In this document: positions 20,101 through 53,000 of the stretch, piece by piece
Position numbering within the stretch: position 1 is the first letter of the stretch
How the letters are laid out: each line of letters starts with the position of its first letter
NCBI GenBank assembly: GCA_046563655.1
Contig: CM102286.1
Coordinates: forward strand, 6,634,001 to 6,698,000
Source of the DNA: Yuukianura sp. NJ FZ-2021
Taxonomy: Eukaryota
Reading direction: 5' to 3'
DNA: 64,000 bases
Notes under the pieces: generated by a model
What the model saw: the letters and a program-made list of their open reading frames with translations, nothing else
What the model was told of the DNA's origin: nothing
Database searches by the model: none
Position numbers and translations under genes: made by a program

Positions 20101-23100
20101 GCGGAGAAAGATTAGGTGTTATATCTTCTTGGCTGGAGATGAGATTGGATTGAGGTTATGTAGCTACTATACTAAAGTAATCAAAAGAAGGAGAACCTAT
20201 AATGGGAAGTTGGAAAATCAATAAATAATTTGTTGTTACAATTTCTGGTGTTTTGTAGGTCGACCGAAACCGCGTGTAAATTGGTGGCTGGAAAACGCCA
20301 TGATTGACGACTCCTGGGTGGACCGGAAAGATGGAGTTCTGGTCAATCACTTGAAGTATTCCCCACTTCAGCGACATCATCTCAACGCCCGATTCGTTTG
20401 TCTCGCCTCCAATACAAATCAAACACTACCTCAGTCTACCATTGCCATTCTCAACCTCAATTGTAAGTTTGTGGAAATCTCCTTTCCTCACAGTCCCCGA
20501 TCGCCCTATTTCTCAAAGTGTCAAGATGAAAGTTAGGGCTCCCCAGTATCAATTCAAAGACATTCCTTTTCGCAGATCAGAGTTAACTTTCTAAAAGGCT
20601 TTGAAAACTCTGTGGTCCACAATATTTGGGTAGACCAAAGTAAGAAACGTTGCAGGATTCAGGGAATTGTAGAAGTAGAAATCCTATTCCCTTTATCAAC
20701 CATGCCCAGCATCATCCAATTCAGAGGCCACCACAACTTTTAGTCCAAAGTTACTGGAGCTTTCATTTCCCCAGCAGCTCTCCTTCCGTTTCCTTTGATG
20801 GAGAGTCTCCGCTTTCTCTTTGTGTCACCACAGTTACAGCAGTCCATTCTCTCTCCATTTATTTCCTACTGCACAATCTTAGGCTTGAATCAATCCAAAA
20901 GGAAAGCTTAGGCTCTTCAATCGGATTTGCACCCTCTCTATGGTGTGGCACAAGTAGTTAGATAGTGTAGGACTCCACATCATTTATTTTTAGCACCATC
21001 GTAGGGGTTAGGTCTGACCACTCATACTACTGTTACAAGGGAGGAAAAAAATCAAAAACAAAAAATGTCGGCAAAAGTATCAAAAACAAAAATGTCGACA
21101 AAAAAAAATATCGAACAAAATGTCGACAAAAAATATCAAAAACAAAAATGTCGACAAAAAAAATTAAAAAAACAAGTAATGATATTTTTGTATAGAAATT
21201 TCGAACATTGACTCTAGCCTAGTGTCTAAGTGCTCGTAACTACTTCTCTACGGTCGCTGGTTCGAATACCACACGGGTCAACGCCTATGGTTAAGAAGTT
21301 ACAAGTACTTAGATACAAGACTGGGGTCGATGTTATTATTTTTTTATTTTTAGTTAGGGATTAAAAAAGTTTTCGGAAAAGTGTCTTTTCTCGAGAAAAA
21401 AGTTTTTTCTTAAAAAAGAAAAAAAAGTTCTTTTCAAAAATAACATTTCTTTAGAAAAAACTTTTTTTGAAAAAATTGAAAATAGCATTTCAAACGTTGT
21501 TCTGAGTGGTACTTAAACAGTGAGTTTTGAAGCTAGAAAGCATCAGTTCTGAAATGAGTAAGCATGTTTTCAGACCAATAGCATTTATTGTTAAGACAAA
21601 ATGTCGAAACGCGCAGCGCTTCCGATCACTACTGAGTCAAAGCGTCAACGTACTGAAGTGTCTGACTTTGAACGACTCCCCTATTTGGTGTATGTTGAAA
21701 TTTTTTCAAATCTGGACGCGATTAGTGGAGCACAACTCATCAAAGCGTTTCCACAGTTCTCAAGCTTGCTAAAGCCTAAAATTTTGAGTTTCTACAAAAA
21801 AGTTTCTCAGTATGCAAAGTATGTGATCACATTCGAACGTGATTTGAACGCGTTCAAATCTTGGCAACAACTTGCGGGACGAAAACTTTTTCTGCGTGTA
21901 TTATCCAAGTTAAAGAATTTTCCAATTGCACGATCGCTAACAGTTGAAAGCTTTATAGCTGAACTCGCAAGGTCTGGTTCTGTGGATCTTGAATATGAAA
22001 TATTTCGAGAGTATTCACTTGAAGAGCTGATGTTGATGACGAACAAATTCGACTTCCAACGTCGAGCTGGTAATGACCTTTATATAGAAGTCAAACATCG
22101 AAATTGTACTGTTTTCGGGAGGCTCGAAACACTTGAGACTCTTGACATGTTGTGGGATATATTCCATAAGAGCGAAAACCAAATGCTACAAGATTTGATT
22201 GGCCAAGCACAGAAGGAGCAGAACGATTTGCAAGACGCTATGGAGAAGAAAGAAGCTTCAGAAGCATACAAAACCAAAAAGCAAGAACTTCAGCGCTGGA
22301 TTTGCAACCGAAAAAAATTCAAGAAACGCCACTGTTTCAAGCTTAAACTAAGTGCGTATCACCGCCTGAAAGCCCTTCAACGGTTGGAGCAAGCGCAAAA
22401 ACATTGCAAATGACAGTTAAACATTTTTTTAATTGTACTTTAACATTACTCTTTCATAATTGAATAAATTCAGACTTATACATTTTCAAACTTTTTGTTG
22501 TTGGAGTTGTTTTATTTTAAGAGTTTCTTCGTTAGTTGTTTAATCCTTTTTATTTTGAGAATTTCGTTTTGAAGTCGATGAACTTTTAACCCTTTTTCTA
22601 TAATTGGGAAAAGGGTCGTTTCTGTTGAAAATCGTTTTGAGTTGTTGTCCGTTTAATATTATTTCAAAAGACATTTTAACCGTTGGAGTGTTCGTTTTTC
22701 TATATTTGGGGAAAAGGGTTGTTTTTGTTGAAAATCGTTTTGAAGCATTGTCCGTTTAATCCTTTTCCAAGGAAATTTTAGTTCTTGGAATGTTTCCGTT
22801 TGCTATAATTAAGAAAAAGGTCAAATTTCTACCTGAAAACTTGAGATAAAAAGGCCACTCGACTGCTTGACAAACCATCAGTCTCATCACGACTTCAATT
22901 GAAACTTCTCCTCAAGAAACTACTCCTCAAGTACTACAATGGTTGAAGCATACGCTGCAGGATTCGTAAGCAAGACTCTTGAAGATCGGGTCAAATGCTG
23001 GTGGAAGCAGGAAGAAGATGGAGAATACAAAGTCTTCATCAAGAAGGACCGATACTATACAACTGTGGAGATGAAGGAAATTCCATTTATCGTCTCGAAG

Positions 23101-26100
23101 CTTATTCTCTTCTTTCTTTCAACGGGAAATCCAGTAAGCGAGCTGCCAAACTTTGAACTCTTACTATTGGATTGCAAACAGCGTTACGCTGATAAGGGTC
23201 AGCAAGCAAAGAAGCCCAAAATGGACATTGTGGCAGAGGCAATGAGCAAAGCTGTCTGGAATCGCAAATCTCCATCTCTCAAGCCTCGCTTGAATGCAAT
23301 CCCTGAAGAAGACTCTGACGAAGTCGAGGGAAAATACTGGATTGACAGCGACTCAAAATTTTAAGCAATTTTTTAAATATTTCAGTTTTGTAAAAAAATT
23401 GTTAGTTTTAAGAATTGTAAAAAATAAATTTTTTGACTCGTACCAAAATGGTATTTAAGCGATCGTTCTTCATTCTAAATGTTTAGTCTAAAACGAGCAG
23501 CCATGGGAGACTTTTACGTAACTCTTCAGAGTGATTCTTCGTCAAATCATTATCCAGAAAACACAATTACAAATTTTAGAAATCATTTTGCAGAATCAAT
23601 TCGCTTAGACGGTGTAAAATACGAGGTGGCGTTAGTAGAGTGTACATATGTTCATCACGAGTATATGCTTCACAAGGAAGGATGGCTTCGACAAGTTGGT
23701 AACGGGTCATTCTTTGATGTGCTCAGCATTTCCTCGGAAGACGCTGCATTGATTCGAACAGCAGACGATCTTGCAAACCGTGTATCGGATAAGTTCGTGC
23801 AAATTGAAATTAAAAACTCAAAAGCTAGATTTGTCAAGAAACCTACCAAATCCTTTGTAAGGTTTAATGAAGAGGCCACTAAAATTCTTGGATATGACGA
23901 AAGAAAACAGAGTTTCGACTATGAAGTTTTTGAACCGAGTGGACATACACAACTTTTCATTTACTGTAGTATAATTGAAAACCAGCGCGTGGGCGGTGAC
24001 CTTGCGCCACTGCTGAGAAAAATTTCAAATACGGGGGACCACAAGAAGGTTGTAACCCGTTCGTTTCAACATCTGCAATACGTAGACGTTGTATTTGACG
24101 ACATTGACCATATTTGGATGTACATCATGACTGAATCTGGTGATCCGCCAGCATTTACAGTTGGAACCTTTTCTGCCACTCTACACTTTCGGCGCAAGCG
24201 ATACTGAGAGGGTATAAAACCGGCGCTCTCAAAAATTTGCAATCATTAACTCTTCAAACGTCAAACTGTCAACATGTACAAATGCAACTTGAGCGAGGAA
24301 GATTTCTTTAGAATTTACAATCCTCAGAGAGGAGGAGCTGTTGGATCAGACGGAGCTGTATTCTTCAAAGCCAATCAGTTTCGTCAGCGTGGTCATGGAA
24401 TTGGTGGAATTTTTGGGTCAATTTTTCGAAAAGTTTTACCATACGTGACCAAATACTTAATGCCTCATGCTAAAACTGCCGTAGCTGGTATAGCTTCTGA
24501 TGTGATTGGTGGAAAAAAGTCTGTAAAGGAAGCTATTTCTGAACACGGCTCGACGGCTTGGAAGGGAGTACTTAAAGGCGTCACAGACGGTATTCTTTCC
24601 ACTCAGTCTGGATCTGGACGTTCAAGGAAGAGGAAGCAAAAACGAAGAGCAAGAGCCGCTCCCAAGAAAAAGAAACCAAGAAATATATTTGAAGAACAAT
24701 GAGTTCCAAACACGCTCCTCACCCAGAAGTAGTTAGAAGTGAAACAGACATATTTAGTGAACCAGAAATGGACGTTAGTCTGCAAAGTAGTGGCATGTTT
24801 GAGTACCATCCATTGTCAGCGTTAAGTGAAAATGGAGGTCCAATTTCTTTTCAAGTCAAGGGGAACGATGTTCACTATGTCGATTTAAGTGAAACTTTGT
24901 TATACGTCCGCTGTAATATTTCAAAAGCAAATGGAGATAAACTCGATGATCGAGCTACCATGCGAATTGCTCCAGTCAACAACTTTTTACATTCGTTATT
25001 CCAGCAGTGTTCTGTGTTTCTCAATGAAACACAAATTACCCCAACAATGTCACTCTACCCTTATCGAGCCTATATTGAGACTGTACTTGCATATGGAGGA
25101 GATTACAAGGATACTCAAGCAGTGACAGCTCTTTACTTGAGAGATGAAGAGAATTTGAGTGACACTGACAGTTCCCACAAAAAGAGACAAGAATTGGCGG
25201 CCAAAGGCTTGGATATGATTGGACGACCGTTTGCAGACATCTTTGCTCAAACTCGCTACTTGCTTCCTGGAATTGACATTAGAGTTACTTTCAACCGCTC
25301 CACTGAAGAATTTGCACTCCACTCTCAGGCAGACAATACAAATCGTTACAAAATCAACATTAGCGAAGCAAGACTTTTAGTTAAAAAACATACACTGCTA
25401 CCGAATATTTTGAATTGTCATTTGAAAATGTGGGCTAATGGACAGCCGGCATGCTACCCAATGCGACGGATTGAGATGAAAACGTACAGCTTGCCCCTTG
25501 GCACTGTGTCAAATGTGAATGAAAACTTGATTAATGGACTACTTCCCGACAGAATTATACTTTGCCTAGTTCAAAGTGAAAAAATGAACGGAACTCTGAC
25601 TACAAATCCATTTGACTTTAAACCTCCAGAGTTGAGACAAATTTCCGTCACAGCAAACGGAGAACAACTTTATCATCAGGTTTACCAGTACAACAGTGAT
25701 GGCGATGTTCGAGTTTCTGAAGCATACTATGGAATGTTTAGCGGTCTTGGACTGTGTGCTAGCAATGAAGGGCCTGCTATTAGCCTTTCCGAGTTTACAA
25801 ATGGAAAGGCGTTTTTCATTTTTAACCTCAGAAACATGAATCAAGGCTACTGCCCCCCAAGACACGGAAGTATAAAAATCGTCGTTCAGTTTGCAAAACC
25901 TACCACTGAGGCTTGGAACGTTGTCTGTCACGCTGACTTTCAATCTACTCTGTATATTGACGAAGGAAAGAACGTGTTTTTCAAAGACTATTCACACTAA
26001 TGGACACCACTCAAATTTACAAGTTTTTGTCAAATATGACTCGTGGATCGAGAGCATATTTCAATGTAATACCCTGCGACCTACTTGAAAAGCTAACAAT

Positions 26101-29100
26101 TGCTCACTTTCCAGCCTATTTGGTTGTAAATAACAAGCCTTCTGATCATCCTGGAGAACATTGGGTGGCAATCTACATTGGAGGCAGAACTGGACCAATC
26201 ATCTTCTTTTGCTCTTACGGACTTGGACTAGACTTTTACCCTATCGACTTTAGAAATTTTGTAAATAAGTTTTCTTGTAAAATTTTGGAGAATACTAGAC
26301 CATTGCAAGCCCTCGACTCTAACGTTTGTGGACAATATGCAATCTACTTTTTGTATAAAATGATGCATGGCTGCTGTATTCTGTCTACTTATTGTCACTT
26401 TTCTCCCAATAGACAATTAAATGATAAAAAAGTACAAAAGTTTGTAATATTAAAAAATCCTTTATTGAATTCAAATTGTAAATTTAAACACAAAATAATA
26501 AATCAATGTTGTACAAAATTGTAAATTTTTGTTGTTGTTGTATTGAAATTTATTTCCAATTGGGTGGGGTCTTCCACTCTTCAAGAAAGCTGTCATCCAT
26601 TCGAGCACGTTTCCGAGATTTGTGCATGCTTTTTCGATTTTTTCCATTAGTAGAAACGTCAGAGTCGTCTTCCGTGAAGAGATGGAGGTGTGTTTTGGGT
26701 AGGATAGACAATGGAAATCTTTTTGAGGTTAAAAAGTTTTTTATTGGTTCGAGTTCATCCTTTGAAATTTTACATCTTCCATTTGACAGTTTTTTAAGTA
26801 TTGAATCAAACGTAGAAATTGGTAGTGATCCACCGTCAAAGTTTACAATTCCTGAAGCTAGTGTAGTTCCATTGTCAATAAAAAACTGCAACAGATGAAC
26901 TCCAAGTCTTGTACGACCACCAAAGTCAAATTTCTCAACTGGCGATGGGCTGGGCGGGGTGTCCACTGATGGAACGTCTACGGGTGGCTCAGTCACGGAT
27001 TTAACAAGACTTTCTGTTTTTTCACGTTTCTTCTTGTCTGCCAATCGTCGTAAAACGTCTTGAAGTAACTTGTTTTGAATTTCTTCCGAATCTTTAATAT
27101 TGAGCAACTGATTTTTTTCAATCTCTAGTCTCCCCACTTCAGTTGGTTTAGAAGTTTGAGACATTAAACGCTCAAAGTCTTCATCACTAATGACTTTGTA
27201 TTTTGTTGGCATGTTTATAGGAGTTTGCCTAAAAGTTCACCTAGAACTGGAATTGCTGCACCAAGTAACAATGGTAGGAATCCACCCTGTTGAACAAGAA
27301 GACGACGCTTGTGATCTGCTTTTCCTTTGCGCGATATCAGACGTCTGATGTGATCCTTGTGAGGAATGAGCCGTTTTATAGCTTTTGCAGGAATAGCCAA
27401 ACGTCCATTATACACATTATGTGCACACTCGCAAATAGCTCGAATTTGTTCTGGACTCGCACTATTTAAATGCAAAGCTCGTTTCTTTTCAGAGCGAGAA
27501 TTCAAGTTTTTCAGAAAATTAAGATGCTTATTGATTTTGCTTCCAGCCATTTTGATTGCTAGAGACTGAATGATACAAATTGAACTGTGCAGCGTCCTTT
27601 TATTTCATTTCCACCATGGACACCGATCTGAAACAACGATGGTTAAACACTTTACTACCTGGAAGTTTTTCTGGAGCATTTGGGTTTCAAAAAGATTCAA
27701 ACACTAAGGTGTCTCCACACAGCGTCAGGAAAATTTTGAAGCAAATTCCAAGTTATCAACTACATCGACCAGTTCGATATCGGTTTCCACGTCGGAGAGT
27801 TTATGTTGGAGGCATGCACGAACAGTATTGTGCAGACTTGAAAGACATTCAAAACATGTCGGGAGCCAATAATAAAAAGAGGTTAGGTTAGGTTAGGTTA
27901 GGTAAGGTTATGTGGGTTAGGGTTTTTAACAAAACTCGAATTTGTTTTTTAGATATTTGCTGGTGGTAATTGACGCTTTCTCAAAACAAGGCTGGATCGA
28001 AGCAACTCCAAACAAGACAGGACCAGTTGTTCTCGCAGCATTTAAAAAAATTTTAGAGCGCAGTGGAGGAAAACCAAAAAGAGTGCAAGTTGACAAAGGC
28101 TCTGAATTTCTTAATCAACATATGAAGACTTTTTTGAAGCGTGAGGATATCAAGCTATTCTGGACGCATTCACCACTAAAATGTGTGATTGTAGAACGAT
28201 TCATTCGCACACTCTTTATGAAAATTCAACGTTACTTGACACATAACAGAACTAAAAAGTTTGTTGATAAATTGTCAGATTTTGAGAATCTGTACAATCA
28301 TGCATATCATCGAAGTATTAAAATGGCGCCGTGCAAAGTAACTGAAATTAATGAGGATGAAGTACGACGCAACTTGTACCCGGAAGTTGCAGTGGACTAT
28401 AAAAAGCCTAAACTCAACGTAAATGACCTCGTTCTTGTCGCCAGAATTAAAAAAACTTTTGAAAAGGGTTACTCAACAAACTATATTGACGAAGTTTATC
28501 GAATTGTGAGAGTTATAGCAACTAAGCCATACGTTTACAAGTTAGAAGACCTTGAGGGTACCCCTATTCTGGGTAGTTTTTACGACAAGCAGCTACTGAA
28601 ATTAGATCAGTAGCCATTCAGAGCGGGACCAGAAAACATGTGTTTTTTCAAACTTTGTGAGTACTTTTTGACCAAGATGTTTGGAAACAAAGAAGATCCT
28701 AGCATTTCCGTCTGTGACGACAACAAAATCAGCTGTATGTGCTGTTCAACCACCGCAAGACGAGGCTCAACCAAGAAACAACATACTAAAACTATTTTGG
28801 TTACTGAATTGTAAAAATACACTTTATTTAAAAAAAAAATTTTTTTTGAATAAATCAACTCTCGAAATACACAAAATTTTGTTTTGAATTTTATTTATTT
28901 ATTCATTGACATAAACGTAACAATTTTCGGGGAAAATGCTACTTCTAATTCGATAGTCGTCCTTTTGTGATTGAGTCAGATCAATTAAAAGATAGCCGTA
29001 GGGCTTTGCCATGCTCTCCTTGTAAGCCAGATCCATTGTAGCGTTCTTTTTTCCTCCATTCATTTGCCGTCCAAGACATGAGACAAATGCAGAGTCTCGC

Positions 29101-32100
29101 GGATTTTTCATCAGAACCAAGTACTGACAGTTGAGTGTAATTTCCCTCAGATTTTTATGGAAAAAATTCTGAACCAAAATAATCAGCGACACATTACGGT
29201 GATGAGAAGTTCTCGTGAAGGCTGCTCCAACGTCTCCCTTCTTTCCAGCTTCATGCATTAGGTCATCAAGCACCATAATTGACGGTCTGTCTGTGCCATC
29301 ATGCCATTTCTCTGGTAGTCCATGAACAAACTGGATCCCAGGGATTTTATTCTTTAATTCTCCAAAAAGTGCAGACTGCCATTCGGTGTAACAATAAGTT
29401 ACATTTGCAATTCCAATTGAAGTTTTTACAACTTCGTTTCTTCGAATCAAAATTTCCTTAACGAGTGTGCTTTTGCCTGTGTTTGTCATTCCGCTCACAC
29501 ACATTGTAAACGGTGCCACAAGTTGCAAGTCAATATCGTCTCCAGATCGTGGGTGCTGAAGTAGAGTGGCGGCGGCGGTGGGGCTTCTTCCGGTGGTGGG
29601 GCTCACCTCACCGATGGCTGGAACCTGCCAGGATATGGCGGCGGCGGCGGTAGGAGATCTAGAGAAACAGTTAAAACAGGTTTTCTCGTGACGCTTTGCA
29701 ACGTCCGAACGCGAAAATAATTTACCGCAGACAGAGTAGACACGCATAATTCAAAGAACAAATGACGACTAAACTCAATTTCAGAAATGACTTGGTTTAT
29801 ATACAAAAATTTTTTATTATACAAGTACTTTAAAACTATTTTTTTAAATTTTTTAACCCTAACCTAACTTAAAATAAAAAATTTTATTTTGGAATGTCTT
29901 TATGACCAAAAGCTAAAGTATTAACGCTATCCACAGCATATCGTTTGGTGTCTAGACCGTTGAGAGCTTTCTTCATAGTAACCTCTGTAAAAATGCGGTG
30001 TTCAACGCTTCGGAATCCTCTCATTGTGACCATTGTTTGCACGTTTTCGTGTAAGACTTTTTCGTAATCTTCAAACCTGATCTGTCCGTTGACTGCTGTT
30101 TTCGTGATTCCTTTTGCCTTCTTGGTGTACTCATCCTTGAAGAACCATGATCCGTCCGGCTTCTTCTGATAAATATTTTTTCCCGAGAGGTCACACTTGA
30201 AGGACTGGAGTTTGAGACTTCGGATTGTGTACATCTTCGGTCTCGGGCAGTAGACATGGGTAATCACCGCTCCAGCAGCTTCGTCCTTGAATTTTCCGAG
30301 GACTTTTTTGTTGACAGGATCATGAAATCTTCCAAATTGTGGATGATCTGCTGGATATTCACTCATGTCGTACAACTCCTTGTTCTCCAACATGTCCTGA
30401 TACACATCCTTGGCTTGAATGTGATAGATGAATGAGTCTGCAAGGAAAATAAAAATTTGTTACTAACCTAGTAAAGAATTTTGACAAAAAACTAAAAGTA
30501 GTTTGTACTTACCAGTATCAGTATATATTAGACGACACTTGTCTCCATACTTTGCCTGCATGCCCACCCTGTGATGACGATACATGATGCTTTTGGCCAG
30601 CTCAAGTACCGTAACTCCTGTGAAGATTGGTTTGGCTAGTGTCACTTGGAGTTTTTTCATCATAAAGACGCAAGTCGTCTCGTTGATGGGTATCACGTTC
30701 TGAACTGTGGGCTTCTTATTGTAGTAAAGCGCCTTCTCAACCGATGTGACAATGTGCGCATTCTGACGGTTTCGGACTTGTTCGATTGTCTTTCCGAACG
30801 CTGAGTTGTTGAGTAACTTCCAAAAGTCCTTAGCAAAGTCGCTGGTGGCCTTTTTTCTCATTTCGGTGTTGTAGTCAATAAAGTCCTTCATCCAAGCGTG
30901 CTGCGTGAACGAAATACCTCTGTGAATTTTTGTGACTTTGACTCCCATCGCCAAGTATTCCTTGAGAATGGCGTGATGAAGAATGTAGCTCTTTTTGTTG
31001 TTCAAATCCGCGACAAGTTTTTTAACTTTGAACAATCCAGGACCAGCGTTGAGGTCGTCCAACAGTTGATGCTGATGAGTAGAGAGCTCGTCCATTGTGA
31101 CAGTTCTCGTGGTCGGAGCTGGAGGATAATCATTAAGCTGATCGTGGAGTTCGGGGTCAATCTCCAGGTCAACCTCTAGTAAATATCCAGTATCCTTCAC
31201 CCTGTCCGTTTCCGCAATGAATCCGTCAATATCTCCCAAAATTTTATCCATTTGAGCCTGAGTCAGCCAACGAAAATCTCCAACGGGAAGCGCCAGACTC
31301 ATTGCTTTTCCCTAAAAAAGTATAATAAAAAATGAAAATTCAGACACATTTTCATCAATTGAAATAAACTACTAAAATATAAATTACTAACGTATAAATT
31401 ATTCGCGTCAATGTAAATGATATAATAGATGGGCTTCTCCGGATTATACTCGTCGGCCATGTAGGGATTGTTCGCGGTTGCAGAACGTCTAGATCCTACG
31501 CACACGAACCCGCCTAGTTTAAAAAGAAGTGTTTAGTTTTCAGCAATTTCAATTATTTAGGTTAGGTTAGGTTAGGTTAATATAATTTCTTACCCCTGAT
31601 CGAATGCTCTAAAAAGCAATGCATTGTAGGGTCGGTGATTAGCTCCAGTTTGACTCCAGACTTCTTTAGAGCACAATCAATGGCCATCATTGGAAGCGAA
31701 TAGTAATGACCAAGCTCCAAACCGTAGCTGTCCATCATTAGCTTCCTCACTCCTTCCATCACGTCAGCCAGAAGTGAGACGTCCAAACGAACGTAAAGGT
31801 CGTGCCATTCACCCATATTTTGAATATTGAAGCTTTCCCATACCTTCTTGGCATGCTCGTAAACTTGATCTTGAATCGTTGATTCAGTTAGGTCGTTGAA
31901 AAACGCCTCTTTTGGTGGTAGACTGTCCATCTCAAAGTCTTCACAGGATTTCATGAGTGAATATGGGTAGGCACCTTTCTGGAAAAGGAGATCAATGTTG
32001 GCTCCATTGTCGACTTCATGCTGGAATTCTTGACGAGTGATTGGAAAAGTAGCATTGGGGTCTTGGCGCATCACCTTAACCAGACCGTCTAAGGATTTGA

Positions 32101-35100
32101 GGGTAAAACCGAGACTGTCTGTGAATCGCAGTTTGTATTTTTCTCTTCTTCTCACGTTGCCAACCAAGTCATTCTCGTCTTCTTCTTCCTCCGCTTCTCC
32201 CGAATACTCTGGAGTAACGGTGACACACAAGTACTTCTCGCTGCTTTTTGGAATAACTTCAACTTTCTTGATGATTTTGTCTTCGGTTAGCTTTCCCATG
32301 GACTGGATAAGGAAGTGGGCGTCGTAGGAGGAGAAGTTGTGTAGGAACACTGGAAATTCCTTTTTGATTTGCGCCTGAAGGTTACAGAACTGGTGTGCCA
32401 TTCCAATGTAATTAAAAGGCGGTAGGTGTGTATGATGTCGAACTTTGACTTCGCCATTGAAGAATGCTTTCTCGCAAAAGCAGCATTTTCTCTCACGTTC
32501 TGAAGCCTCACGCTGCTCAGCGGTCATGGTTTGGTCGAGCATCCTCGGGGCAATCTTCTCATAGTCATCTACTTCCTTCCCGAGAGTTTTGGAAAAGCGG
32601 AGAATGCTCTCAACAAAGTGAGCAGCAACATCTTCGTCGTCGTCGGTCATGTGGTAGCATTCACCGTGACGACGTTTTCCCTCAAAGTCGACGCAGACCC
32701 ATGCGTATCCACAAGCCTTGTGAATATTTTGACGAGTTGAATTTTCCTTGACTTCTTTTTCTCGTGTTCCCTTCATTGCTTCTTTGTGCCGTTGACGGCA
32801 AAATTCGTGCTCGCAAGTGGAATCGAATTTGTTTAGAAATGCCTCAAAATCAGCATAAAAGCGGAACGGCATTGTTTGAGTGCGAGCCCACTTGTCAAAT
32901 TTTAGTTCGCATTTATTTTTGTCTGGATATCTGACTTTTTGAAGTCCGAGCGCTGCACAATATGGGAGGTGCTCCTTTAAAGTTCTTGGAAGCACAAAGT
33001 TTGAAAGACAGTTGCGGCAGATATGTTTGGTGCGATGACCGTTAGGAGACGTCATAAGCGCTTCAAGATTGCGGATAAGAATGAAATGAGAGTTATTACC
33101 TTGCATGAGGCACATCAGATCCACATGAATACGTTTGGACTCCTTTGAGTTATAAAGGAGGGATATGTTGTCCTGCATGTACTTAAACAACTCGACATCT
33201 TCCGCTTTGTTTTCCTTTGATTTCTTGCGATTGTTGGCGTTTTTTCGCTGTGGAGCCGCAGGACCGTCCATGTCATAACCCAGGACTGTCAATGATATGT
33301 TTGGGTTAAGCTCTTCGAAGCGAGGTAGTTGCTGTAAAGTTATTGGAAATTGTAGCCCCTGAGTGTTCACTTTTGAAACATGGGGAATGTAGGACCGAAC
33401 CAGTTTGTCCACCCGGCACCGGTTTGGTCCCGGAGGAACACCAGCAATTTTGTCGTGTGCAAGCACAGACCAGAGAAAACACTGATTGTGGGAGTTTGAC
33501 GCAGACACTTCACTGTTGTTAATATTTAGCAAAGTTTTATTATGTTCCGATAGCGGAAACGGTGTTTCCACATAAGTACCAATTTTTGTGAATTGGTATT
33601 TTGCGGTTACGAATGTGAAATCGGAAATATGATCCAAGTCCCACCCACTGCCTTCGTTGGTAAAGTTTTCAATTTGTGAGGTCATTTGTTGACCCATGAT
33701 CGTCCACACCTTTGGAATGCTTTCATCGGTGTAAACCAGATGGCGATACGAGGTGAAACAGCCACGGTTTGTTGCAACTAGTCCGTTGGAATTTGTTTTG
33801 GTGAAGTTGCAAACCATTGAGAAAAAAACTTTCAAGTTTTTCCAGTTTTTTCGGTCTTCTTTGATGCATTCCGTGGATGAATTGTAGACACACTTTAAGA
33901 AATCCCGTTCGTCGACACCATTTTCACATCTGAATTGGTCAATTTTGGCCCTGTATTGTTTAACAACTTGTAAAGATGTTAAAACTGGCTCTAAAGGGAT
34001 TGGTTGCAAGTGTGGTGGCAGCAGACCCCCTGTTTGTGATGAATTCGAGAAGAAATCTGGATGCATCTCATAAAAATGTCTCTGCATTTCATCCCGACAC
34101 AGAAATGTTAGGTTGCATGGTGGACACTTTATTTCGCGATAAGCGTTTAATAGGTCGCTTCCAGATGGCATCTGTTGATGAGGTTGTGGTTCTTCATCTT
34201 CATGTTGAACGTGTGTGTGAATAAGCAGCTGATTTGCACACGGGAAATTTTCGTTACAGATGTAACATAAGTGACGACGTTTAGCTGATGGGCCTGAAGA
34301 TGGAGATGCTGCTCTTTTAGACATCTTCTAAAAGTTGAAATGAAAAGTAAAAATGAGTAATTTAATAATTAACTAAGTAATATTTAATAGTTGTGAATTT
34401 AGTATTTAAGACAAACCGAGCATCGACTCGACTGTTATTTATTTGCTGTTATTTAACTAAATACTGCTATTTAACTTAAATAAATTAAATGAAATTAATC
34501 GTCAGTCCACTGAAAAAAGTGGTTTTTCAGCCATAACTTTTTTCACAAGAGACATAATTGAAAACTAAAAGGGCCAATCGATTCCCCATACAAATATACA
34601 TCAGAAATAATAGTTTTACTGTTGAAAACTGAAAAGTTGAAAAAATTTGAAAATTTTTAACTTGAATAGTGCGTTTGAATCTATTCATTTCAAACAACCA
34701 CTAGCTCTGACAATCATCAAAACTTAAAAAGTCTAAAGTCTAAAAGTTTTAAAGTTTCCATTTTCACATTAAATTATAACTAAAATGGCAACAAACTCCA
34801 CCACACCTACACCACCACCGGCTCCACGGATTCGACTTCCAAACGCGTCAAAGGTCAAGATGGATAATCTGAAGGCACTGATGCACAAGGCGTGCACTAA
34901 TCAGAAGTACGTCAACTCTGTGGGGTCATCAACAACTGCAGAGCGACGTCTTCCAGCGTACTTCTATTTCCATTGGGAGGACATTCTAGAAGTGTTGCTC
35001 TTCGATATGAAAGGCAGACCATCATCGATACCACGTGTGGTTCGGGAAGACTACACAACGGTAGTGGACAACTATCTTAAACAAAGGTAAGTATGCATTT

Positions 35101-38100
35101 TCTTTCGGTAATTTTTAATTTTTTAACTAATATTTCGTTTATGCATGGGCAATAGGTCTGCACAAACCTACCGTGAAAATCTTATATTCATGGTGAATGA
35201 TATCGTTCGATGCCAACGAGGGATACACGAAGTACATTCGTACTTCATGTTGAAAAACGTCAACGCGAGGCATCGCTACGCGTGGATCAATTCAGTCCAT
35301 GCGAAGCCTCTCAAAGACATTGGCAGAAGCAAGACTGAAATTCCAGCAGAGAGACTTCATTGGTCGAGAGAATTTCCCACCAACATCAAATGTTCAAAGT
35401 TCTACTATGATCATCAAGTGGTCAAGGTGGAGGAACATTGCGTCGACGCCCTGGAGACAAAACCAGCAATCGGGACTTATCCAGTCATTCTTATCGCATT
35501 CATGAAGGTAAGTTGTCTTAGTTATACTTTTACAACCTTTACCCTTTACTAGTTAATAATATATTTCTTTACAGAAATTGATGGAGAAGAGCACCTGTGC
35601 AAAGAAAATTCATCACATCCCGACGGAGCAAGCGTTTCGCACTGCGCCATATGACGTAATTAAACACGTTCAACTTGGTCTTGGATGTCATTACTCGGAC
35701 ACAAAAGCGGCAGCGTTCATGAGACCGACCATGGACATTTTAGCCATAATGGAAGTACCGTTTCTGGCAATGCCAAACCATACGGAAATTCTGATTCTGA
35801 CAGTCAAACTGCCGGGACATATTCTACTGGTGGCGGTTGACATTCCTCAGTGGTAAGTCTTCTACGTTTTAAATAGTTTTTAATGTTTTAATGTTGATGT
35901 TAATTTACTAATTCTAGGAAAGGATACATTTACGACACATTCGAGCCAGATAAGTTATACAACATGAGAACCCTCGTTGACAGAGTACTCCGGAGAAAAT
36001 TTTTCAAGCCATACTCGCTACAATGGGACTACCAACCTCACGTATACGTACACCTGGGTCCGGATAACAACTGTGCCAGAATTGCTGCACACGCAGCACG
36101 GATGATTGTGGAGCATGGCGTTGCAGATGTCCATGACAAGTTTGATCAAGCTGGAGTGCTAACCACACTGCAGCTAATGATTGACTATAGCAGAGAGGCG
36201 GTCTTTCGCCCACCCGACAGGCCATAAAGAAATATTCATGTGAATTATTTTCATTTTGTTTTTATTCAACTAATCATATTTTATACATCTTTTAATTTAT
36301 AATTTTAATTTATTTTTTATTTGGTGTTTTATTTCTTAAAAACTTATAAAATTAATAAAACAATTTTAAATTACAACTTTTCAATTGGATTCTTCAATAT
36401 AGCGATGAAAGTGAAGGCACGATGTTCCTTTAAGCTCTGGGAAAAAAAAAATTAAAGTTGTTAAAATTAGTATTCATTCTTTTAAATTCTTTTAATATAA
36501 AACAATTTTAACTTTAATTTGAATTACCTTAGTTACTTCTGTCCCAGAGCCGAAGAGCTTCACGACGATGGTACATGTTCGACTTCAGAAATGCTGTAGA
36601 TTTCTTAAATGCCTTCCGACGACGAATCCATCGTTGGAATTTGTCTTCGCGCAAGCGTTGGAGTTTTTCTTTGCGCATTTTTAATTGATATTTTCGACGA
36701 GATTCGTCCAGCTCTTTATCGAATTCAATGGATGACTCCACAGTTAGCCGCTGGAGTTCCGGATTTCTTTCCCCGCCATGTTGTGCGCCTTCAATGCTTC
36801 CAAGGGCTTGATACGTCTCGTATCTGCAACCGTAGCGACGAGGTGTGATGCTGATTACGATGTCGTCCCGAAAAATCCCGCGCTCAAAGTCGAATTTTTC
36901 AACGAGCGGTAGTAGTTCCTCGATGGAGCAATTTTTGAATATTGCGCTCTCAACCGATATTCGATGTGGCGCGATCGCAGTCAAAAAATTTTTCACACTA
37001 AGTAAGCGTCCAATCGGAAAACGCTTTAGACCCGACAGCACAACTTTAAACATTTGCTTCTTGTCGAATTCAAAATGGACGATGTGTGTCTCACCAACAC
37101 TGATAACGTGTGTGGTGTACTCGGCAACTTTCGCCCCCATCCTTTCCAGCATTGGCTTCAGTATGTTTAAAGAGCTTGGAAAAACTTTAGCAAGCTCCAA
37201 AGCGCTAGACCTGTCCAAATTTGCGAATATTTCTAGTTGGCACAGGTATGGGAGTTGATCAAACTCGAATTGTTTAGCCATTTTGAAAAAAGAAAAAATC
37301 CTTTACTTTAGAATTACTGCTTTAAAAACAAATTTTAAGCTGTTGGTGAGAGCAGAATGAAGTTGAAAATGAAGAACTTTTCAATTTTTTTGTGTCAGAC
37401 AAAAATAAAAAAGTATTTGTTTTGTCCCAGGGCGTTGGAGAATTCTAGGAATTCACAAACTCGAACTGAAAAAAATTTTTTTTGTTTGTCAGTGTGGTCA
37501 GAAATGAAAAAGTTCAAAAGTGTACAAAAAATATCCATCTTAATCCGGAAAAAGGTTGGGTTTGCATTCCAATCCCTTTTCCAAAAATATAGTGCCAAAA
37601 AATATCCATCTTAATCCGGAAAAAGGTTGGGTTTGCATTCCAATCCCTTTTCCAAAAATATAAACTAATTGTCAATTATAATTGACAATTAACCTAACTG
37701 ACTCTAACCCTACGATGGTGCTAAAAATAAATGATGTGGAGTCCTACACTATCTAACTACTGCACAGGTTTTTACTTTCATCTTTTAGTTTTCTAAAGTG
37801 CGTAACATTCCCCAGCCTAACCTTAATCCAATTGCCAGGATTTTCATAGCGTAAACAGGATTTACTAAAAGAATCTGGAATGTTTAGTATTATTAAATAT
37901 CTGCCAAGTATTAAATTTTGCCGGATTCCACCACACAAAAAAAAATTCTCGTAAGGATACTACTCCATTTTGCAGTTATTTACAATGAATTAAGTGGGTG
38001 GGGTTGAGAAATGACGAGGGAAGTTGGTGCTTGATTTAGGAAGGAAAGTATGAAAGCTCCATTTGTGCTCAATGGTGAAAGTTGGTGGAATGCGGCTGGA

Positions 38101-41100
38101 ATGAGGGCATGTGGAATCTATGTGGTCGTACATTAAGCTTAATGGCTAATTTTTATCCGATGGTTGGGGATGGGAATAGAGTTTTACTCTTCTTCTGAGT
38201 ATGTGTGTGCGTTGGCTTAATGGAGTGGTGGTCATATTTGCTGGATGGCTTTCCTATGAAATATTTTGGATTAGGCCAGCTAAAGTGAAAGTAGGGGAAG
38301 AAATGGAAGGGGGGGGGGGAGACAACCAGTTAACTTTTCAACCTAAAAACAACTGTGAGTGGGTGGGTTGTCCCAAAAAAAATAAGAAGGTAGACACTCC
38401 TTGTGGTGAAATATTTAACTTTCTCCAGACTGTCCCTGAGGTTTCACTCCACATTGTCACAATTTTTATTAAAAGCAAAAAACATAAAAAGAGTACAACG
38501 TAACATATAATTTTGGGACATTCTTAGATAATAATTAGAAAAAAGTACACGAGCACTCAAGAAATTAAGTTGTCCGAATTAATGTCAGTTGAGGGGAACA
38601 ATTATATGAAAACGATTAATCTAGACATGTTAAACTGCATTTCTTGGGTTTTCAGCTAAATTTAAGCATGCTCCTCCCAATTAATATTTGGTTGAGCTTT
38701 ATTGCGATATTTCAAAGACTACGAATTGCATTCTTCAATTATTAAAAGGCTATCATGTCATTGCTTTCTTAAATTGAACAACTATGAACACTGAACAACC
38801 AGTACTACATTTTTTAGCGTCAGCTGCCTAGATTATCGTGAAGTTCGTCAATTCTACATATAAAAGAAAGTAACGTCGCAATTATGAACGAAATACAGCT
38901 GAAATGGTAAACCTAGAAGTGTTGGTGTAGGTGACAAGCGTATAATGCCTCAGCACGTAGTATCGACATAAGGCAGGCTTTCAACGTATCTCCGGTGGAT
39001 CATTAGGGCTTGAAAAGAAGTAAAACTGATACTAGTAGTATAGGGGAGCTTCTTCCTTGAACATGCCACTGGACTTAGCACCTCCATAAAAACTACAGTG
39101 AAAAATGTGGAGGGGAAGTGAAAGGAGGAAGAGAAAGGCTAATAATGGAAGTGACTCCGACATTCAACCGCGGCAGCAATAAGGAAGGAAGAAAGCGCTT
39201 TATTTCTTTCCGCTCAAAATAACCCAAGTCTTTGTTTCCTTTTTGGCTTCTCTCCTTCACTGTCAAAACCCCCAAAAAATGCGCTGTGCTTTGCATTCCA
39301 AGAATCAGAAAGAAAACTTCCACCCGAGGCGACCTAGTTCGTTATTTACTTTGAAAATTCAGACACACAAAGAAAGTTTTTTTTATGGCTTTCTTATAAA
39401 TTTTAAATGGTGCTTTGCTGAAAGCATGGAATTAAAAATATAACTTATCATAAAACTGTTTCGACAGCTCAAACTTTCAGGTTGTTGCTGCATAACGTAT
39501 TGCGATCAAAGAGGGGTGTGTGTCACGAAAGACCGTATTAATTTAATAAATAAAACCCGCAAAGTAGTTTATGACTTGATAGTCTCTTTACCACGTTTTA
39601 TTTCATTTTTTTAGTACCCGGGGAGTTCCAACGTGCAAAACGAAAGTTAGGTCCTATTTACCCTCTAAAATCTAAACGTGTTTTTCAATACGAATTTCTA
39701 AAATCAACCAGGGCTCTCATTGTTCCAGAAACATTTCTAGTTTGATGAAACAAAATCCGACAGTTTAGAGAATGCATGCTTTGTTGACAGTTAAACTAGA
39801 GAAGTCGAATAAGGGAATTAGGCTTACTATGGCTAATGGCAATAATTGTCTTTGCAGTGCGTCCCTTGAGTGTGTCCATTACGACAAAAGACACAAACCT
39901 CTTGGCCGAGAAGCGGTACGACATTGAGTGCGTGTCAAGTGGTTCCCGCCCTCCTGCTACCATCACGTGGTGGAAAAACGGAAGACAAATCAAAAAGTCA
40001 CCACATAACGTAAGACTATGTTTTTGCACAGAATTCTCAGAATTACAGAAGGAGTAATAATTAATAAAATTGCATATGAGAAACTAACATAAGCTTTGAA
40101 GAATTCACGTAAAGTAGAGAATGTTTTGTAAAGAGATATTTCGGCTTATTAAAAATTAGAAGAAAAAAGATTTCAAGCGGAAAATCTGAAGACGCTATTT
40201 ATAATTTAAGACGCAGAGTTTTCTTTGAACTAGCCCAACATACTAATCTCGCTGTTGCTTTAACAAAAAAAAACACAGCAGAGGCTGATTTTTTTTTCTA
40301 TTTTGTGCAAGCGACAGCTTTGTTTGTGTAGTAGCGCTTATGAAAGAAAATAATAACCGAAACAGTACTTTTTGAAAAACAAGTAAAAGAATTCCAAAAA
40401 ACGGTTTTGTGGTAAAATTTCGTAAACAGCTCAGCCGGTTTTGTTCTTTAAAACTTACAAAGAAATGTAAAAGAGAAAGCGTCTTACTCATAAGTTTCTT
40501 AAATTCTCTTTCATGTTAATCCTTTTGTAGCCGAATTCTGAAGACAAGAATATTTCCACCAGCATTTTGAGTCTCACTCCTTCAGTTGAAGATGATGGGA
40601 AGGTCTTGACTTGCAGAAGTGAGAATGCGTGGATCCCAGCAAGTGCCATCGAAGATCGCTGGAGACTCAATGTCAATTGTAAGTACAACGTTTCAAAATT
40701 TCTCAAACATACACTTCGCCAGCAATTTGTATCCTGGTGTTGAGAATATACTATTTTATAATGTAAGTTAAGCTAAAGCTTTGTTAGTCGAAGCTAAACC
40801 TCACCACATCAGGGCCCAATAAAGCCGGGTATTTTGGTTCGCTAAATTAAAACACGTCCGCGCATTTTCCATATATTAGAAATGTTAAAAAGCAAAATGT
40901 GAATTGCGAAAGAAAGCACGTTAATAAGTTGTGTTTTCTGAAATATTTCTATGGAATTTAACTTGAAGTTATATAACAGACATATCTGTTACTAAACGCA
41001 TAACCTCAAGCACCAAGAAGGAAAAGGCGCCCTCTTGTTTTGGAAAATTGTATAAACAACGGTAAACCAGTGAGACCTCGAGCTATTAATTTATAGTCTC

Positions 41101-44100: not shown

Positions 44101-47100
44101 TTTTCCTCTTTCTTTCCCCGCAAATGCCGCCAACTTTGAATCAATTCTCTCCATTTGAGTTCCAAACTCAACTTTCTCTTTTATCTTAATGTGAAGTGAG
44201 TCTCTATAGTAGCTCTGGTGCAGTTCCAGGAAATGAGTTTTCTTAATGTGTCTTTGTCTGGATTTCCATTTCTAGATGTGCCAATATGCAAGGCTGGAGC
44301 AGAGGAGCTAATCGGTGCAATGATACATGAGACCGTAGTAGTACGTTGCGAAATGGCGGCGGATCCACCTACGGTCCAATTCTTTTGGACATTTAATAAC
44401 TCGGGCATGGAAGTGTCCTCAATCGTCAATTCCAGGTTCACGTCCAGTGGAACCGTGAGCATCTTCAACTACACCCCGGCTGCGGTCAGTGACTTCGGAA
44501 CGCTGAGCTGTTGGGGAGCAAATCCTATTGGACAGGGCACAAATGAGCCATGTCGATTTCAAATTGTTCAAGCGGGTCCACCCTTTGCACCTAAAAATTG
44601 TTCCATTTATAACGAAACGGAAGACTCTGCTACCGTTGGATGCATCGAAGGATTCAACGGAGGTCTTTCGCAACTTTTTACTCTCGAAGTTCATGATACT
44701 CAAGCCAAAAGCCTTAGGTTTAATGTTTCATCGGCGGTAAGCTCATCCTTCATTTTTTTAAATTCTTGTGTTCCAAGTAAGACAATAGACGTAGTTGACA
44801 AATGTTCCTACACATTAATTAACTCTTTCAGAGAGTTATTTATTAACTAGTTTTGGTTCATTCTTTGTAGGTGCCGGTATTTACAGTGGAGGGTTTGGAT
44901 GCTGGCATTCCGTTTAACTTTCTTTTGTACTCTAGTAATAGCAAAGGTCGATCCGAGCCTATTGTCATGGACGGTATAACCTTCCGTGGAGTTGCCAAAT
45001 ATACGGGTCAGCAATCCTTTTGAATTTATCAAGACGTTTTGGCAATACCAACTAAAAATTATGTTAGTAAAGTTGTGAATTTGTGTTGCCAGGTCCTACG
45101 GGGGTAGAAGTGTACCCCATTTACGCAATTCTAGTCGTTGCAACCCTTGTTCTCCTAATATTTCTCGTGATTACAATTATTGCAATTTGGAAACGGTCAA
45201 GACGGAAGAAACCGCCAGTGGTTAAGGCTGCTATTAGAAGAGAGAGTGAAAACACGTTGGAATCCGATGAACCAACTCCAACCAAAGTAGATCCAAGCGG
45301 CCTCGAAGAAATTGGCAACCCTGATGTCATTCCTAGCAAAAACGGTAAGTAAGTTCCCAGTGACTTGGAGTTAGCTGAAAGAAAATGTTGGTTTCCCTTG
45401 TTACATAATTGGCTTAACGTCTTTTCCACAACGTCAAGTTTCACTTTACAGAGAGACTCAAGTGAGGATCCACTTTCCTTACTTAATAAAGTTACCAAAA
45501 CTAGGTATATTCCAAGGCCTGATTCCACAAAAAAAATGAATCACGGTTTAGAAAGAGATTTTTGGAAGTAAGCAAGATACTGTTAATAAATTAAACCTTA
45601 TACTGCAAAATCCCTCGTTTTGCACCTCGCTGTGATTGGTTAATTTTGCCTACCGTAAATTTTCTAATACCCAACATATAAACAGTATGATAGATTTGGA
45701 CTTAAAGCACCGGTAGTTGTTTTGTTTAGAATTGAGGTCATTGAGAAACACTCAGCTTTTATATCTCGGCAACCAAAAAAAAATGTTGCTAAAAGAGGAA
45801 GTTTTCTGTACTGGATTTTTTTTCTTCCTGAAATACGATAAAGTCAAACAAAATAAGGGCGGAGACTAGCCAGAGCCCCAACTAGACTCTGATTGATTAA
45901 GTAACTAAGATGACTTGAAGTTGTGAAGAAGAATATTCGTTTCCTACTTAGAAGTTTCGTCTTACACACAATTAATGTTGTTCCTTCATTTCCAGGTGGT
46001 CTGCGCGGTTTCATTCGAATTCATAAAACTCCTCCGGCAAGAAGAAGAAAGAAGAATCTGGAGGTGAAGCACAATGGAGAGACTGTGGCTCTGACTGGAG
46101 AGTTGCCGGTAATTAATAATTCCACAGCTTCCACTGTGCTTTCTTTTCAACCTACACCTAACACAGAGTCTCCGCATATAATTCAAATCCCATGCTCCCA
46201 CTTTCTATTCTCTCAGTGAAAGAAACGCCCCACATCATTCGGATTGTTCCTAATTATACAAAGAATAACTCAGGGTAGTTATGCTGAAGGATTCAAAATT
46301 CTTGACACGCTGAAATGAAAAAAATGGAAATTTTAGTATTCTCCTGTGACCTACACTTTCCTTATTCTCTACAATCCTTTTCAAAATATTGACACCGACA
46401 ATTATAACATAAAAAGATTGATGTGTTGAAAGGTTATGAGGTCTCGGGTAAGTACCGTATCCAGCTTTTTACAGAATTGATATACTAGGAGTATCGAGTA
46501 TCTGAAGGCCCTTTTTGAACTTTGGCTCTTACCATGAGAGTACCAGCAATAAAAAATATTTTATTGATCTGTTCACGATGAATTTCTGGATTGGAGTTCC
46601 ATAACCTGTTTTTTTCTCTATTACGTCATCATAAGAATTCTAAAACGACTTGATTCTACGATTTTTCTTCTTCAGTGTAGTGTAGCTGAAAAAAGATACG
46701 CTGAGTGAGCAGTAGAGTGCAAATAACAGGAGAATTTCATGACACCATTTTCCCTATTTGTCGTCTACCTTCTTTTCTTCCTGTTTAACAAACCAAGAAA
46801 AGGATCCGTTTCCTGTTTTTATGATGGCAACATCAATATAGCACTGAAAATCCCAATCTCCCTAGCAGAATGAATTAAAAATTGAAATTTCTGTCCATTG
46901 TAAGGGGTAAAAACCCCTGATGCAGACGACATTAAATTGATGTTTGAACTTTTTTAAGCTTATTAAATTCTATATTTTCTGAAATTAAATTGATAAATTT
47001 TCAAAATTTTAAATTAACTATTTATTAACGTATTGCTTGTATTTTGTTAGGAACTGGAGCATCGTGGGAACAGTAATGGGAGTCACAGATTTCTCCAATC

Positions 47101-50005: not shown

Positions 50006-53000
50006 TTATGTTTGAGTATCCACTGTGTGTGTAGTATGTGATCTGAAGTAGAGAATTGCACATACACAGCCAAGCAAAAAGATCAACATGCCAATTACCA
50101 ATAAACCAATCAGCAAAAGTCCATAAGGCCACTGAAGATTTCGGAGCAAAGCTCCGATTCCTTGCTGTGATGAGGCTGCGGACTCGTCGTCCCAATTGGG
50201 CTTTGAAACTGTCAAGTTCATCTCTGTTGCACTCGTGGTACTGGCACTGTCGTCGGTATCTGTTGCAAAATCAAAGAAAAAGAGATCGTTCATAAACAAT
50301 CCCGCCATTTTTGGAAAAACTTATGAACTTATGAAAAAAATTGGACAACATGTACTTCGGCAGTCCTAGTTTTGGAAACTGTAGAGCAGACACATGCAGA
50401 GATGCTCCCTACGATTTCCTGAAGCTAAGTGAATGGAGGGAGGGGATAATGGAACTATTTGACTCCGTTTGCCACTTTCTAAATGAGTTGAGGAAATGAA
50501 GTTGTGTGGATGGGCTTTTGGCATCTCTGCCTCCGCATCAGATCAAAGAAAGTTTTCAAGTCGGAATTTGAGAAGGAGTGAAGATGTGGTTATAATGCTG
50601 CGCTTTTATGACTGGTTTCGAATGTCATGTGGATATTCCCTCTCCTTTTTTGTGCCTGACTTTATGTTTTTTTGTGCGCGATGGAGTGAAAGTGGCGGAG
50701 AGTGAAAGTGGAGAAAGAAATATCTAGTTTCTACTAATGTTTCTTTCCACTTTTCCTTTCAGCCCTAACACCTCTCTCTAGTCGTCTCTACGCATCTTCT
50801 TCAATTCTTGTTACTTTAACTTAAATTTCAAATTAGTAGGTTGTAATTTTTATGAAACAGTCCGGAATTTACAACTAACTTTTGTTCCGAAAGTCAATAG
50901 GAAGGAATTTTAAGAACAAGCTTGATTTTTTCTATTTAGTCAGAGTATGCTGTTTGTCTTGTGCAAAAGAAGCGCAAGACATTGTGTTCATGTGGATAAA
51001 AGATACCCGGTTCCTAATCTGTTCTACTTTTCGCAGGAAAAGTAAAAAGAACGGGAAATCTTGAAGGGGTTCCCAATGAAAGTGAAAGTCCTATTGAGAT
51101 CAATGGGTTGCCGTCTGTGCTCTGTTGCTTCCTTCGGAATCCAAATGGGTTTTAGTAGTTTGGATTCTAAAGTCAATTGGAGTCTGGGAAAAGTAAATGA
51201 CTTCTGGTTCATTATTATTACTCCAAGGTTTATAGCTCCATAATTCGCTGCTGTTTCCTTTCCCTAGAACACATCAATAGAAATTCCATTTGTGTCACAC
51301 CCTATTCGCCTAGAGAAAGTGCTCCAAAGTGAGTCCTGGAATAATATTTGCGTAGCACTTTGAAATTAAAGTAAAAGCCAACTTAACCTAATCTAAGGCA
51401 CATAGAGGAAACTCAGAAACTGTGAAAAATGGAATGAGAGCGTAGTTAAAACCAAGGAGGTTTGGTGAAAAGACGGTGCTAATAAAACCATTTACGGGAA
51501 CCTCCACTGCATTCGCCTAGGTTTCCTCTAATCCTTCCAAATTTATAAAATATGGCGGTAAAATGGCTTGTGTTGATGTGAAAATAAAGGTTGCGTAATA
51601 CGTAATATAATGTTAAAATTGGCCTAGAATAATTCACGGAAAAAATACGACCTACTTATTTTCACGTCATCGTATTTACATGTTAATATTCAAATTTCTC
51701 CACTACTGAGCTTGGCTATATGACTAAAATTAATGGAGAAAAGTTTACAGCGTACTTACGTGGCACAATACGGAATAGGCACGGGGATATTTGTTTGGCA
51801 TATGAGTTTCTTGCCCAGCATCCTACCAAACCATAATCAAGTTGAGATGTGACTCGGTAGAGAAGTCGAGATTGATGAAATATTCGATCAAACTCGACAT
51901 CACTCTCTCCACGTTTACTACTTTTCTTGTTTCTCTCCAATGCTTCTTCCCTAAAGTGTTCCAGATCTTCGGATAGCAACGAAGAGGCTGAATCTGAATT
52001 TTTGGAATCTAATCTCACTTTCGCTCCAAAGGGATTCTGACGATGGGCACTCGCGTCCCTTCTTACTTCGTCCTCTGTTAAGTTCAGTTTTATAATTTGA
52101 CCTACACTTGACAAGGGCAGGATGCCACCGGATCGGTTGAGAGTCCAATAAAAATTTAAATCTGGTGGCCATGCCAGAATACTACAGTTTAGATGACAAG
52201 ATTCACCAACGGCTAATGGAATGACTTCTTCGGTGCTTGAAGAACATTTTGGTGAAACTGTAATTTACACAAAAAAGAGTAGAGGGAGTCGTGGGCTAAG
52301 CAAAGAAACGGGCCTATTAGTTCTAATGTCTCCCTTTACGCGGAATTTATTTGAACGAATTCTTAATAATACTGTTATTTCATATAGAGTTTGCGGTGGG
52401 TAGTTTAGCAAATGACAAGATAAACAAGAGACTGGAATTGAATGAGCTAACTTTATATCGGGAAGTGACGAATTTGGACACCGCTGGAGGCTCTAAAATG
52501 TAATCGCTGAATTGGCAACCACGGAGTCACTTTTTCTGTTGCGACAGAAATTGATTAGCAACAAAGCTTTCATTAATAAAAAAAAAGTGAGAAAAGGAAA
52601 TAAAGCTCGCGGGCATTTTCGCTTGAAACGCTGTGGTTGCGTACAACTTTGAAAAAGTGAACGTGGAAATGACTTTTTAGGTTTACGGAGACAGTGCGTT
52701 CGAAACGTCAGACATCCACTGTTTTAGAGCTAATGTGAACGTAATAAGTCATTTTCTCGTTGTAGTGGTGTGTGGAGGCGTTCTTTCACGGGTAAGAGCA
52801 ATTGTGAAAGTGAGTGAAAGAATTGTGAAGCACACAACTACAGAACTTGTGACAGTGAGTTAAGTAATTTGGCCGTCCACACTCTTAGGAACTGTTGAAG
52901 GTTATTGGCACTTCCTTCCAATTATTTCTTCCCACGGGTCCATAATCGTAAAATTTTGTCACTCGGGAGAACTGCCAATTACATTGCTACGCAGTCCGCA

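Follow-up and report, generated by a model that had tools for sequence, protein, structure and literature searches.

Predicted spliceosomal introns in the replication and integration genes of a Maverick/Polinton element from Yuukianura sp. NJ FZ-2021

Are the replication and integration genes of a Maverick/Polinton element in the genome of Yuukianura sp. NJ FZ-2021 broken, or are they split by introns that the cell removes? We addressed this question in a 64,000-nucleotide stretch of DNA (hereafter the window; GenBank assembly GCA_046563655.1, contig CM102286.1, positions 6,634,001 to 6,698,000 of the forward strand), in which the element occupies positions 20953..37761 (16,809 bp, no strand assigned). 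It encodes a protein-primed family B DNA polymerase (pPolB) and an rve integrase and is delimited by terminal inverted repeats (TIRs) with a 5-bp target duplication, the features that place it among the Mavericks/Polintons; its TIRs starting with AG, length of about 17 kb and probable packaging ATPase are likewise those of the adintovirus-like elements of animals. A first-pass annotation had suggested that the broken look of the replication and integration genes is an artefact of open reading frame (ORF) calling and that these genes, like a third one, are interrupted by short introns. Open exons, whole codons, colinear junctions and two pPolB intron positions shared with relatives bear out this suggestion. 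With a probability of roughly 0.8, judged from sequence, we consider the interruptions to be genuine, constitutively removed U2-type spliceosomal introns of a Maverick lineage with nuclear expression, the genes being split and not broken.

Intron signals, reading frames and colinearity

The integrase gene is interrupted once, at 27882..27952 on the + strand (71 nt, GTTAGG...TTTTTTAG), and the first 40 nt of this intron form a degenerate (AGGTT)n array. The pPolB gene, on the − strand, carries three introns: intron 1 at 31514..31593 (80 nt, phase 1, containing a (TTAGG)4.6 tract as read on the + strand), intron 2 at 31312..31391 (80 nt, phase 0, GC content 0.17), which splits motif A, and intron 3 at 30438..30512 (75 nt, phase 1, in frame yet stop-containing), which splits motif C. 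Three further introns, all on the + strand, interrupt the third gene at 35087..35155 (69 nt, GTAAGT...CAATAG), 35508..35574 (67 nt, GTAAGT...TTTACAG) and 35853..35917 (65 nt, GTAAGT...ACTAATTCTAG). These seven sets of coordinates are exactly those first proposed. All seven introns, 65-80 nt in size, begin with GT and end with AG, and removal of each recovers the reading frame. Every one contains at least one stop in the incoming frame, and GC content is 0.17-0.34 in the introns, whereas the exon sequence flanking them, taken over 150 nt to either side, has 0.39-0.47. The 5' end is GTAAG in five introns and GTTAG in the integrase intron and pPolB intron 2.

Removal of the introns yields coding sequences of 4203 nt (1401 codons) for pPolB, 924 nt (308 codons) for the integrase and 1239 nt (413 codons) for the third gene, and the exons, 6.4 kb over the three genes, are otherwise free of frameshifts and stops. 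In pPolB, exon 1 (31594..34324, −), an open frame of 916 aa, covers the N-terminal and exonuclease half and ends in SIRG; exon 2 (31392..31513, −) ends within motif A at DANNLY; exon 3 (30513..31311, −) runs from the second half of motif A to the first half of motif C, YTDT; and exon 4 (29884..30437, −) starts with DSFIY and includes the stop codon. Exons 2 and 3 were delimited by homologue alignment, and exon 4 by its open frame together with the alignment. The three junctions then read SIRG|G, DANNLY|GKAMS and YTDT|DS, precisely as in the first-pass annotation. Integrase exon 1 (27616..27881, +) ends in phase 2 of an Arg codon and matches the integrases of loci L017 and L008, and exon 2 (27953..28613, +) contains the rve core (Pfam rve, E = 5.7e-11) and the stop codon.

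Matches to splice signals are not rare (a loose filter picked 63 candidates in the window, 16 of them within the element), so that homology, not the motif, constitutes the real evidence. The search with pPolB gave 33 homologues at E <= 1e-3, several carrying PF03175, and motifs A and C were seen in the alignments; the best named match was the PolB of an Orchesella springtail adintovirus (34% identity). When 14 of the 33 homologues were aligned to the window by tblastn, the first segment ended at 31592 in all 14, and the homologue residue numbers ran on without a break across intron 1. Similarly, residue numbers were consecutive over intron 2 in 10 of the 12 homologues having segments on both sides, and intron 3 appeared as a gap of exactly 25 residues between TDT and DS in the three full-length alignments listed. 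At the R|Y junction of the integrase, the L017 (51% identity) and L008 (42%) proteins are colinear and ungapped, and their genes lack the intron. Thus, all four introns open to such comparison, three in pPolB and one in the integrase, are colinear with intronless homologues, indicating that the gaps are non-coding relative to intronless relatives. By our estimate, GT and AG would coincide by chance with the boundaries set by homology at a rate of about (1/16)^2 per junction, and the agreement seen exceeds chance.

To place the pPolB introns relative to conserved motifs, conservation was scored in 6-residue windows (1284 in all) over an alignment of 18 full-length homologues. The windows at the three junctions lie at the 98.4th, 98.8th and 99.9th percentile; under random placement, the probability that all three fall in the top 1.6% is, by our arithmetic, about 4e-6. 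Since these introns are the only interruptions of the gene, the bias in position is not an artefact of viewing the motifs alone, and the claim that catalytic motifs are split non-randomly holds for pPolB.

Intron positions among related elements

We compared the window with 17 loci from a metagenome scan, keeping its exon translations separate. Junction 1 of pPolB could be assessed in nine loci, eight of which are continuous; the ninth, L001, carries a 62-nt GT...AG intron identical to that of the window in nucleotide position and phase. Junction 2 is continuous in 9 of 10 assessable loci and interrupted in L002, whose intron lies 4 nt upstream of the window's intron 2, within the Leu codon of NNLY. 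At junction 3, 13 of 15 loci are continuous, and L001 (64 nt) and L016 (63 nt) have introns at the identical nucleotide and phase. The intron shared by L001 and L016 has kept both ends and diverged in the middle. Among protein records, the P0002 ORF is continuous at junctions 1 and 2 and ends in YTDTGKS..., a read-through into GTAAGT at junction 3. The P0001 ORF is continuous at junction 1 and departs from homology after DANNL; to judge from its residues only, an intron probably lies there, offset by about 2 nt from intron 2 of the window.

The relatives that share intron 1 or 3 positions (L001, L016 and P0002) are about 50-60% identical to the window's pPolB. Because the positions and phases of introns 1 and 3 are common to such distant relatives, these introns are inherited and are not insertions specific to one copy, as the first-pass annotation had allowed they might turn out to be. 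The comparison of positions that it proposed thus gave an exact match for these two introns; intron 2 and the integrase intron occur at their exact positions only here. The viral contig L018, a distant relative found with an alignment query (35% identity), lacks introns at all three pPolB sites. Single-protein queries of viral contigs found no relatives, nor did searches of prokaryote genome contigs.

A second protein search returned 42 matches, 26 of which span motif C uninterrupted, P0043, P0042, P0044 and P0060 among them. Trees were made separately for pPolB exon 3 and exon 4, in which P0001 could not be placed. All placeable intron-bearing rows (L001, L002, L016, P0002 and the window) fall in one 13-row clade (support 99/96), and the exon 4 tree makes the window sister to P0043 (100/98). 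A clean, nested series of stepwise intron gains, drawn from a 20-row tree, was dropped once P0043, P0042, P0044 and P0060 had been added.

Two side observations concern the same relatives. Comparison of L001:1548-2144 with L016:1-596 shows about 99% identity in the exon 3 part and, in the exon 4 part, differences that fall mostly on third positions of codons; this mosaic suggests recombination between related elements. The P0056 and P0063 ORFs, from a more distant lineage, open with five unrelated residues followed by the AMS of motif A and may mark a further motif A intron outside the 13-row clade.

Competing explanations and intron origin

If the interruptions are spliceosomal introns, the pPolB, integrase and third-gene transcripts would be produced in the nucleus, where the host spliceosome would join the SxRGG stretch before motif A, motif A itself, motif C and the stretch before the second Asp of the integrase. 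The introns would be a property of the Maverick lineage rather than of a single copy, and two of the pPolB positions would have been inherited or exchanged among elements that differ at about half of their residues. The element copies itself as DNA, so that introns are not erased in each cycle. The introns are probably spliced out, and constitutively so.

Several observations weigh against this conclusion. Two of the 5' sites (GTTAGG and GTTAGT) have T at +3, and the pyrimidine tract is poor in the first of the third-gene introns. The introns of the third gene are supported by signals and frame, homologues being lacking in the searches. The nearest relative, P0043 (77% and 65% identity), is continuous through motif C, as are P0042, P0044 and P0060, which implies that intron 3 has been lost, repeatedly gained or exchanged, unless these records derive from transcripts; protein-only records may stem from gene models or transcripts, and the absence of an intron from them is not proof at the DNA level.

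Were the element instead a dead copy, the gaps would be disabling insertions with GT and AG at their ends by accident. This is what one might suppose from the integrase intron and pPolB intron 2, which have their exact positions only in this copy and consist largely of tandem repeat, a product that slippage could yield. However, canonical ends at exact homology-defined boundaries in seven of seven cases, two positions held in common with distant relatives whose exons are open, 6.4 kb of exon with no other frameshift or stop, and perfect TIRs leave decay an extremely improbable account. Hardly more credible is the delivery of the introns by an intron-generating transposon. Such introners are known from Maverick-Polinton-like proviruses of dinoflagellates, which, in the extracts available of that work, resemble the present element in having spliceosomal introns inside otherwise complete proviruses (PMC11957031), and the patchy distribution of introns among relatives would fit. 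By contrast, the dinoflagellate introns are described there as repeated mobile families, whereas those of the window are unique animal sequences of 65-80 nt at positions common to relatives about 50-60% identical; they show no similarity among themselves or elsewhere in the window apart from the TTAGG tract, and they are far shorter than typical transposons.

Splicing might also be regulated, with introns retained in some tissues or stages and enzyme made only where splicing is completed, as happens with intron 3 of the P element, a DNA transposon that depends on intron removal to make its enzyme. Were any of the four pPolB and integrase introns retained, the enzyme would be cut short ahead of or inside a catalytic motif, and the integrase intron starts with five tandem GT(T/A)AGG units in 5-nt steps (27882-27902), of which only the first restores the frame, an arrangement loosely like decoy 5' sites. 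However, the majority of sites match the GTAAGT consensus and have ordinary 3' ends, tandem 5'-site arrays are missing from the related introns of L001 and L016, and nothing in the DNA demands regulation. The link to third-intron retention in the P element is one of analogy. We regard regulated splicing as unlikely and favor constitutive removal.

The ends of some introns hint at how they arose. The array in the integrase intron, (AGGTT)8.6, begins in the last two exon bases, and one of its units serves as the 5' splice site. In pPolB intron 2, the 5' end lies within a 15-nt x 2.5 tandem repeat (31364-31401) that takes in the last 10 exon bases, and in L002 the first six intron bases resemble the six exon bases after its 3' end. 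Neither the integrase intron nor pPolB intron 2 has a counterpart at the exact position in any relative examined, and both look younger. They may plausibly have been born by slippage or local duplication. A bolder proposal, which we offer tentatively and consider possible rather than probable, is that this Maverick lineage shows, in progress, the birth of spliceosomal introns within polymerase catalytic motifs. On more than one occasion, introns would have originated inside a stretch of motif A spanning 5 nt, the cases being the window, L002 and, probably, P0001, through exon-started tandem duplication or microsatellite growth of the kind seen in the 15-nt repeat and the (AGGTT)n array. They would then persist or spread at the most conserved sites, where imprecise loss would be lethal and conserved flanks would permit exchange of introns among co-resident elements. 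As a side effect, the element would need nuclear splicing before it could replicate or integrate.

These findings depart from published descriptions. In the extracts available, the core genes of intact vertebrate Mavericks (PMC8097293) and of nematode Mavericks (bioRxiv 10.1101/2022.07.12.499685) are described as intronless, whereas the pPolB and integrase genes of the window's element are split by four introns; according to one survey, endogenous viruses 'do not contain introns' (PMC10120064), and the extracted text of the adintovirus paper mentions introns solely in a figure legend on group II maturases (PMC8502044). According to extracts of the same literature, surveys of Mavericks, Polintons and endogenous viruses commonly rely on ORF finders of the prokaryotic type and take an interrupted gene to be a decayed one (PMC8097293, PMC10120064). 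Elements of a lineage in which real introns split pPolB and integrase would be scored as dead though possibly intact. A full-text literature search gave no account of spliceosomal introns conserved in the pPolB or integrase genes of animal Mavericks; the founding papers lay outside that search, and an earlier mention is possible. Repbase entries reportedly annotate exons for some invertebrate Polintons. Inteins and homing introns occupy the most conserved catalytic motifs of family B DNA polymerases; the introns of the window, by contrast, are of the spliceosomal GT-AG type, with neither endonuclease nor self-splicing structure. Shared, offset and absent positions together make these elements a compact natural system for the study of intron gain and loss, including why catalytic motifs are the sites.

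Third gene, remaining genes and host setting

The third gene consists of four open exons in three frames, at 34785..35086 (starting at ATG), 35156..35507, 35575..35852 and 35918..36227 (with the stop codon), all on the + strand. Exon 4 is possibly the C-terminal catalytic part of a CE-clan (Ulp1/ElaD/SseL-like) protease: in a language-model feature search (Atlas) it scored 0.95, with 196 of 256 features common to the ElaD-SseL-like_C and Peptidase_C48 clusters. We treat the identity of the product as a Ulp1/C48-like CE-clan protease as a lead. The best score for exon 3 in the same search was 0.77, which is uninformative. The third gene had no Pfam match even at E <= 10 and no PHROGs match, and phmmer against 1.84 billion representatives returned two matches, both repeat proteins that we judged spurious.

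The first-pass annotation had held the introns to be confined to non-structural genes. For the ORFs as they stand this is accurate, but the non-structural ATPase and six unnamed genes are intronless too, and the division was drawn after the fact. The probable packaging ATPase is a single ORF at 28899..29747 (−) with a weak Pox_A32 match (E = 0.006); it is about 60% identical to ORFs beside pPolB in L003, L006, L011 and L017, and 24% identical to the L018 ATPase, which itself matches Pox_A32 at 3e-13. The putative adenain-like protease, a single ORF at 26000..26524 (+), gave no direct match in Pfam, PHROGs or the PDB sequence search. It is 32% identical to an L018 ORF that matches Peptidase_C5 at E = 5.7e-4, below our cut-off. 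The putative major capsid protein is a single open frame of 433 aa at 24699..26000 (+) with no match in Pfam, the PDB sequence search or PHROGs. Single-sequence folds had a mean pLDDT of 30 for the putative capsid protein and 34 for the putative protease, too poor for a fold search.

The left TIR (20953..21006, +; 54 nt, beginning AG) is 100% complementary to its perfect partner on the right (37708..37761, −), and the target duplication, GCACA, stands at 20948-20952 and 37762-37766. The perfect TIRs and the duplication point to a recent insertion. The outermost genes, at 21601-22410 (+) and 36532-37281 (−), point inward from each TIR and are paralogous to each other, with 36% identity across 248 residues (E = 1e-35); neither has a Pfam match. 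Upstream of both, the splice-signal filter picks GT...AG candidates at 21353-21454 (+) and 37610-37708 (−), which could be 5'-UTR introns or chance matches. Three non-coding tandem arrays were also found: a left subterminal array at 21045-21170 (28-nt x 4.5), one at 22594-22822 between the first two genes (103-nt x 2.2) and a right array at 37525-37662 (perfect 71-nt x 1.9). Rfam (17.1 kb scanned) and tRNA scans of the element gave no matches.

TTAGG is the telomere unit of arthropods. Tracts of (TTAGG)n of at least 15 nt occur at 27880-27921, 31557-31579 and 29858-29872, all three within the element, with a chance expectation of 0; the 47 kb of flanks in the window contain none. Two of the tracts are intronic, and the third, a telomere-like (TTAGG)3 (29858..29872, −), comes just behind the stop codon of pPolB. 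The three tracts are not oriented consistently with respect to the transcripts.

Host exons encoding immunoglobulin (Ig) domains on the + strand, at 13351-13854, 39800-40054 and 44200-44847, bracket the element, indicating that it sits within a long intron of a + strand Ig-superfamily gene of an animal. A second Ig-superfamily gene lies in the window at 51719-59583 (−). The flanking Ig exon has six relatives, all metagenomic, with up to 81% identity.

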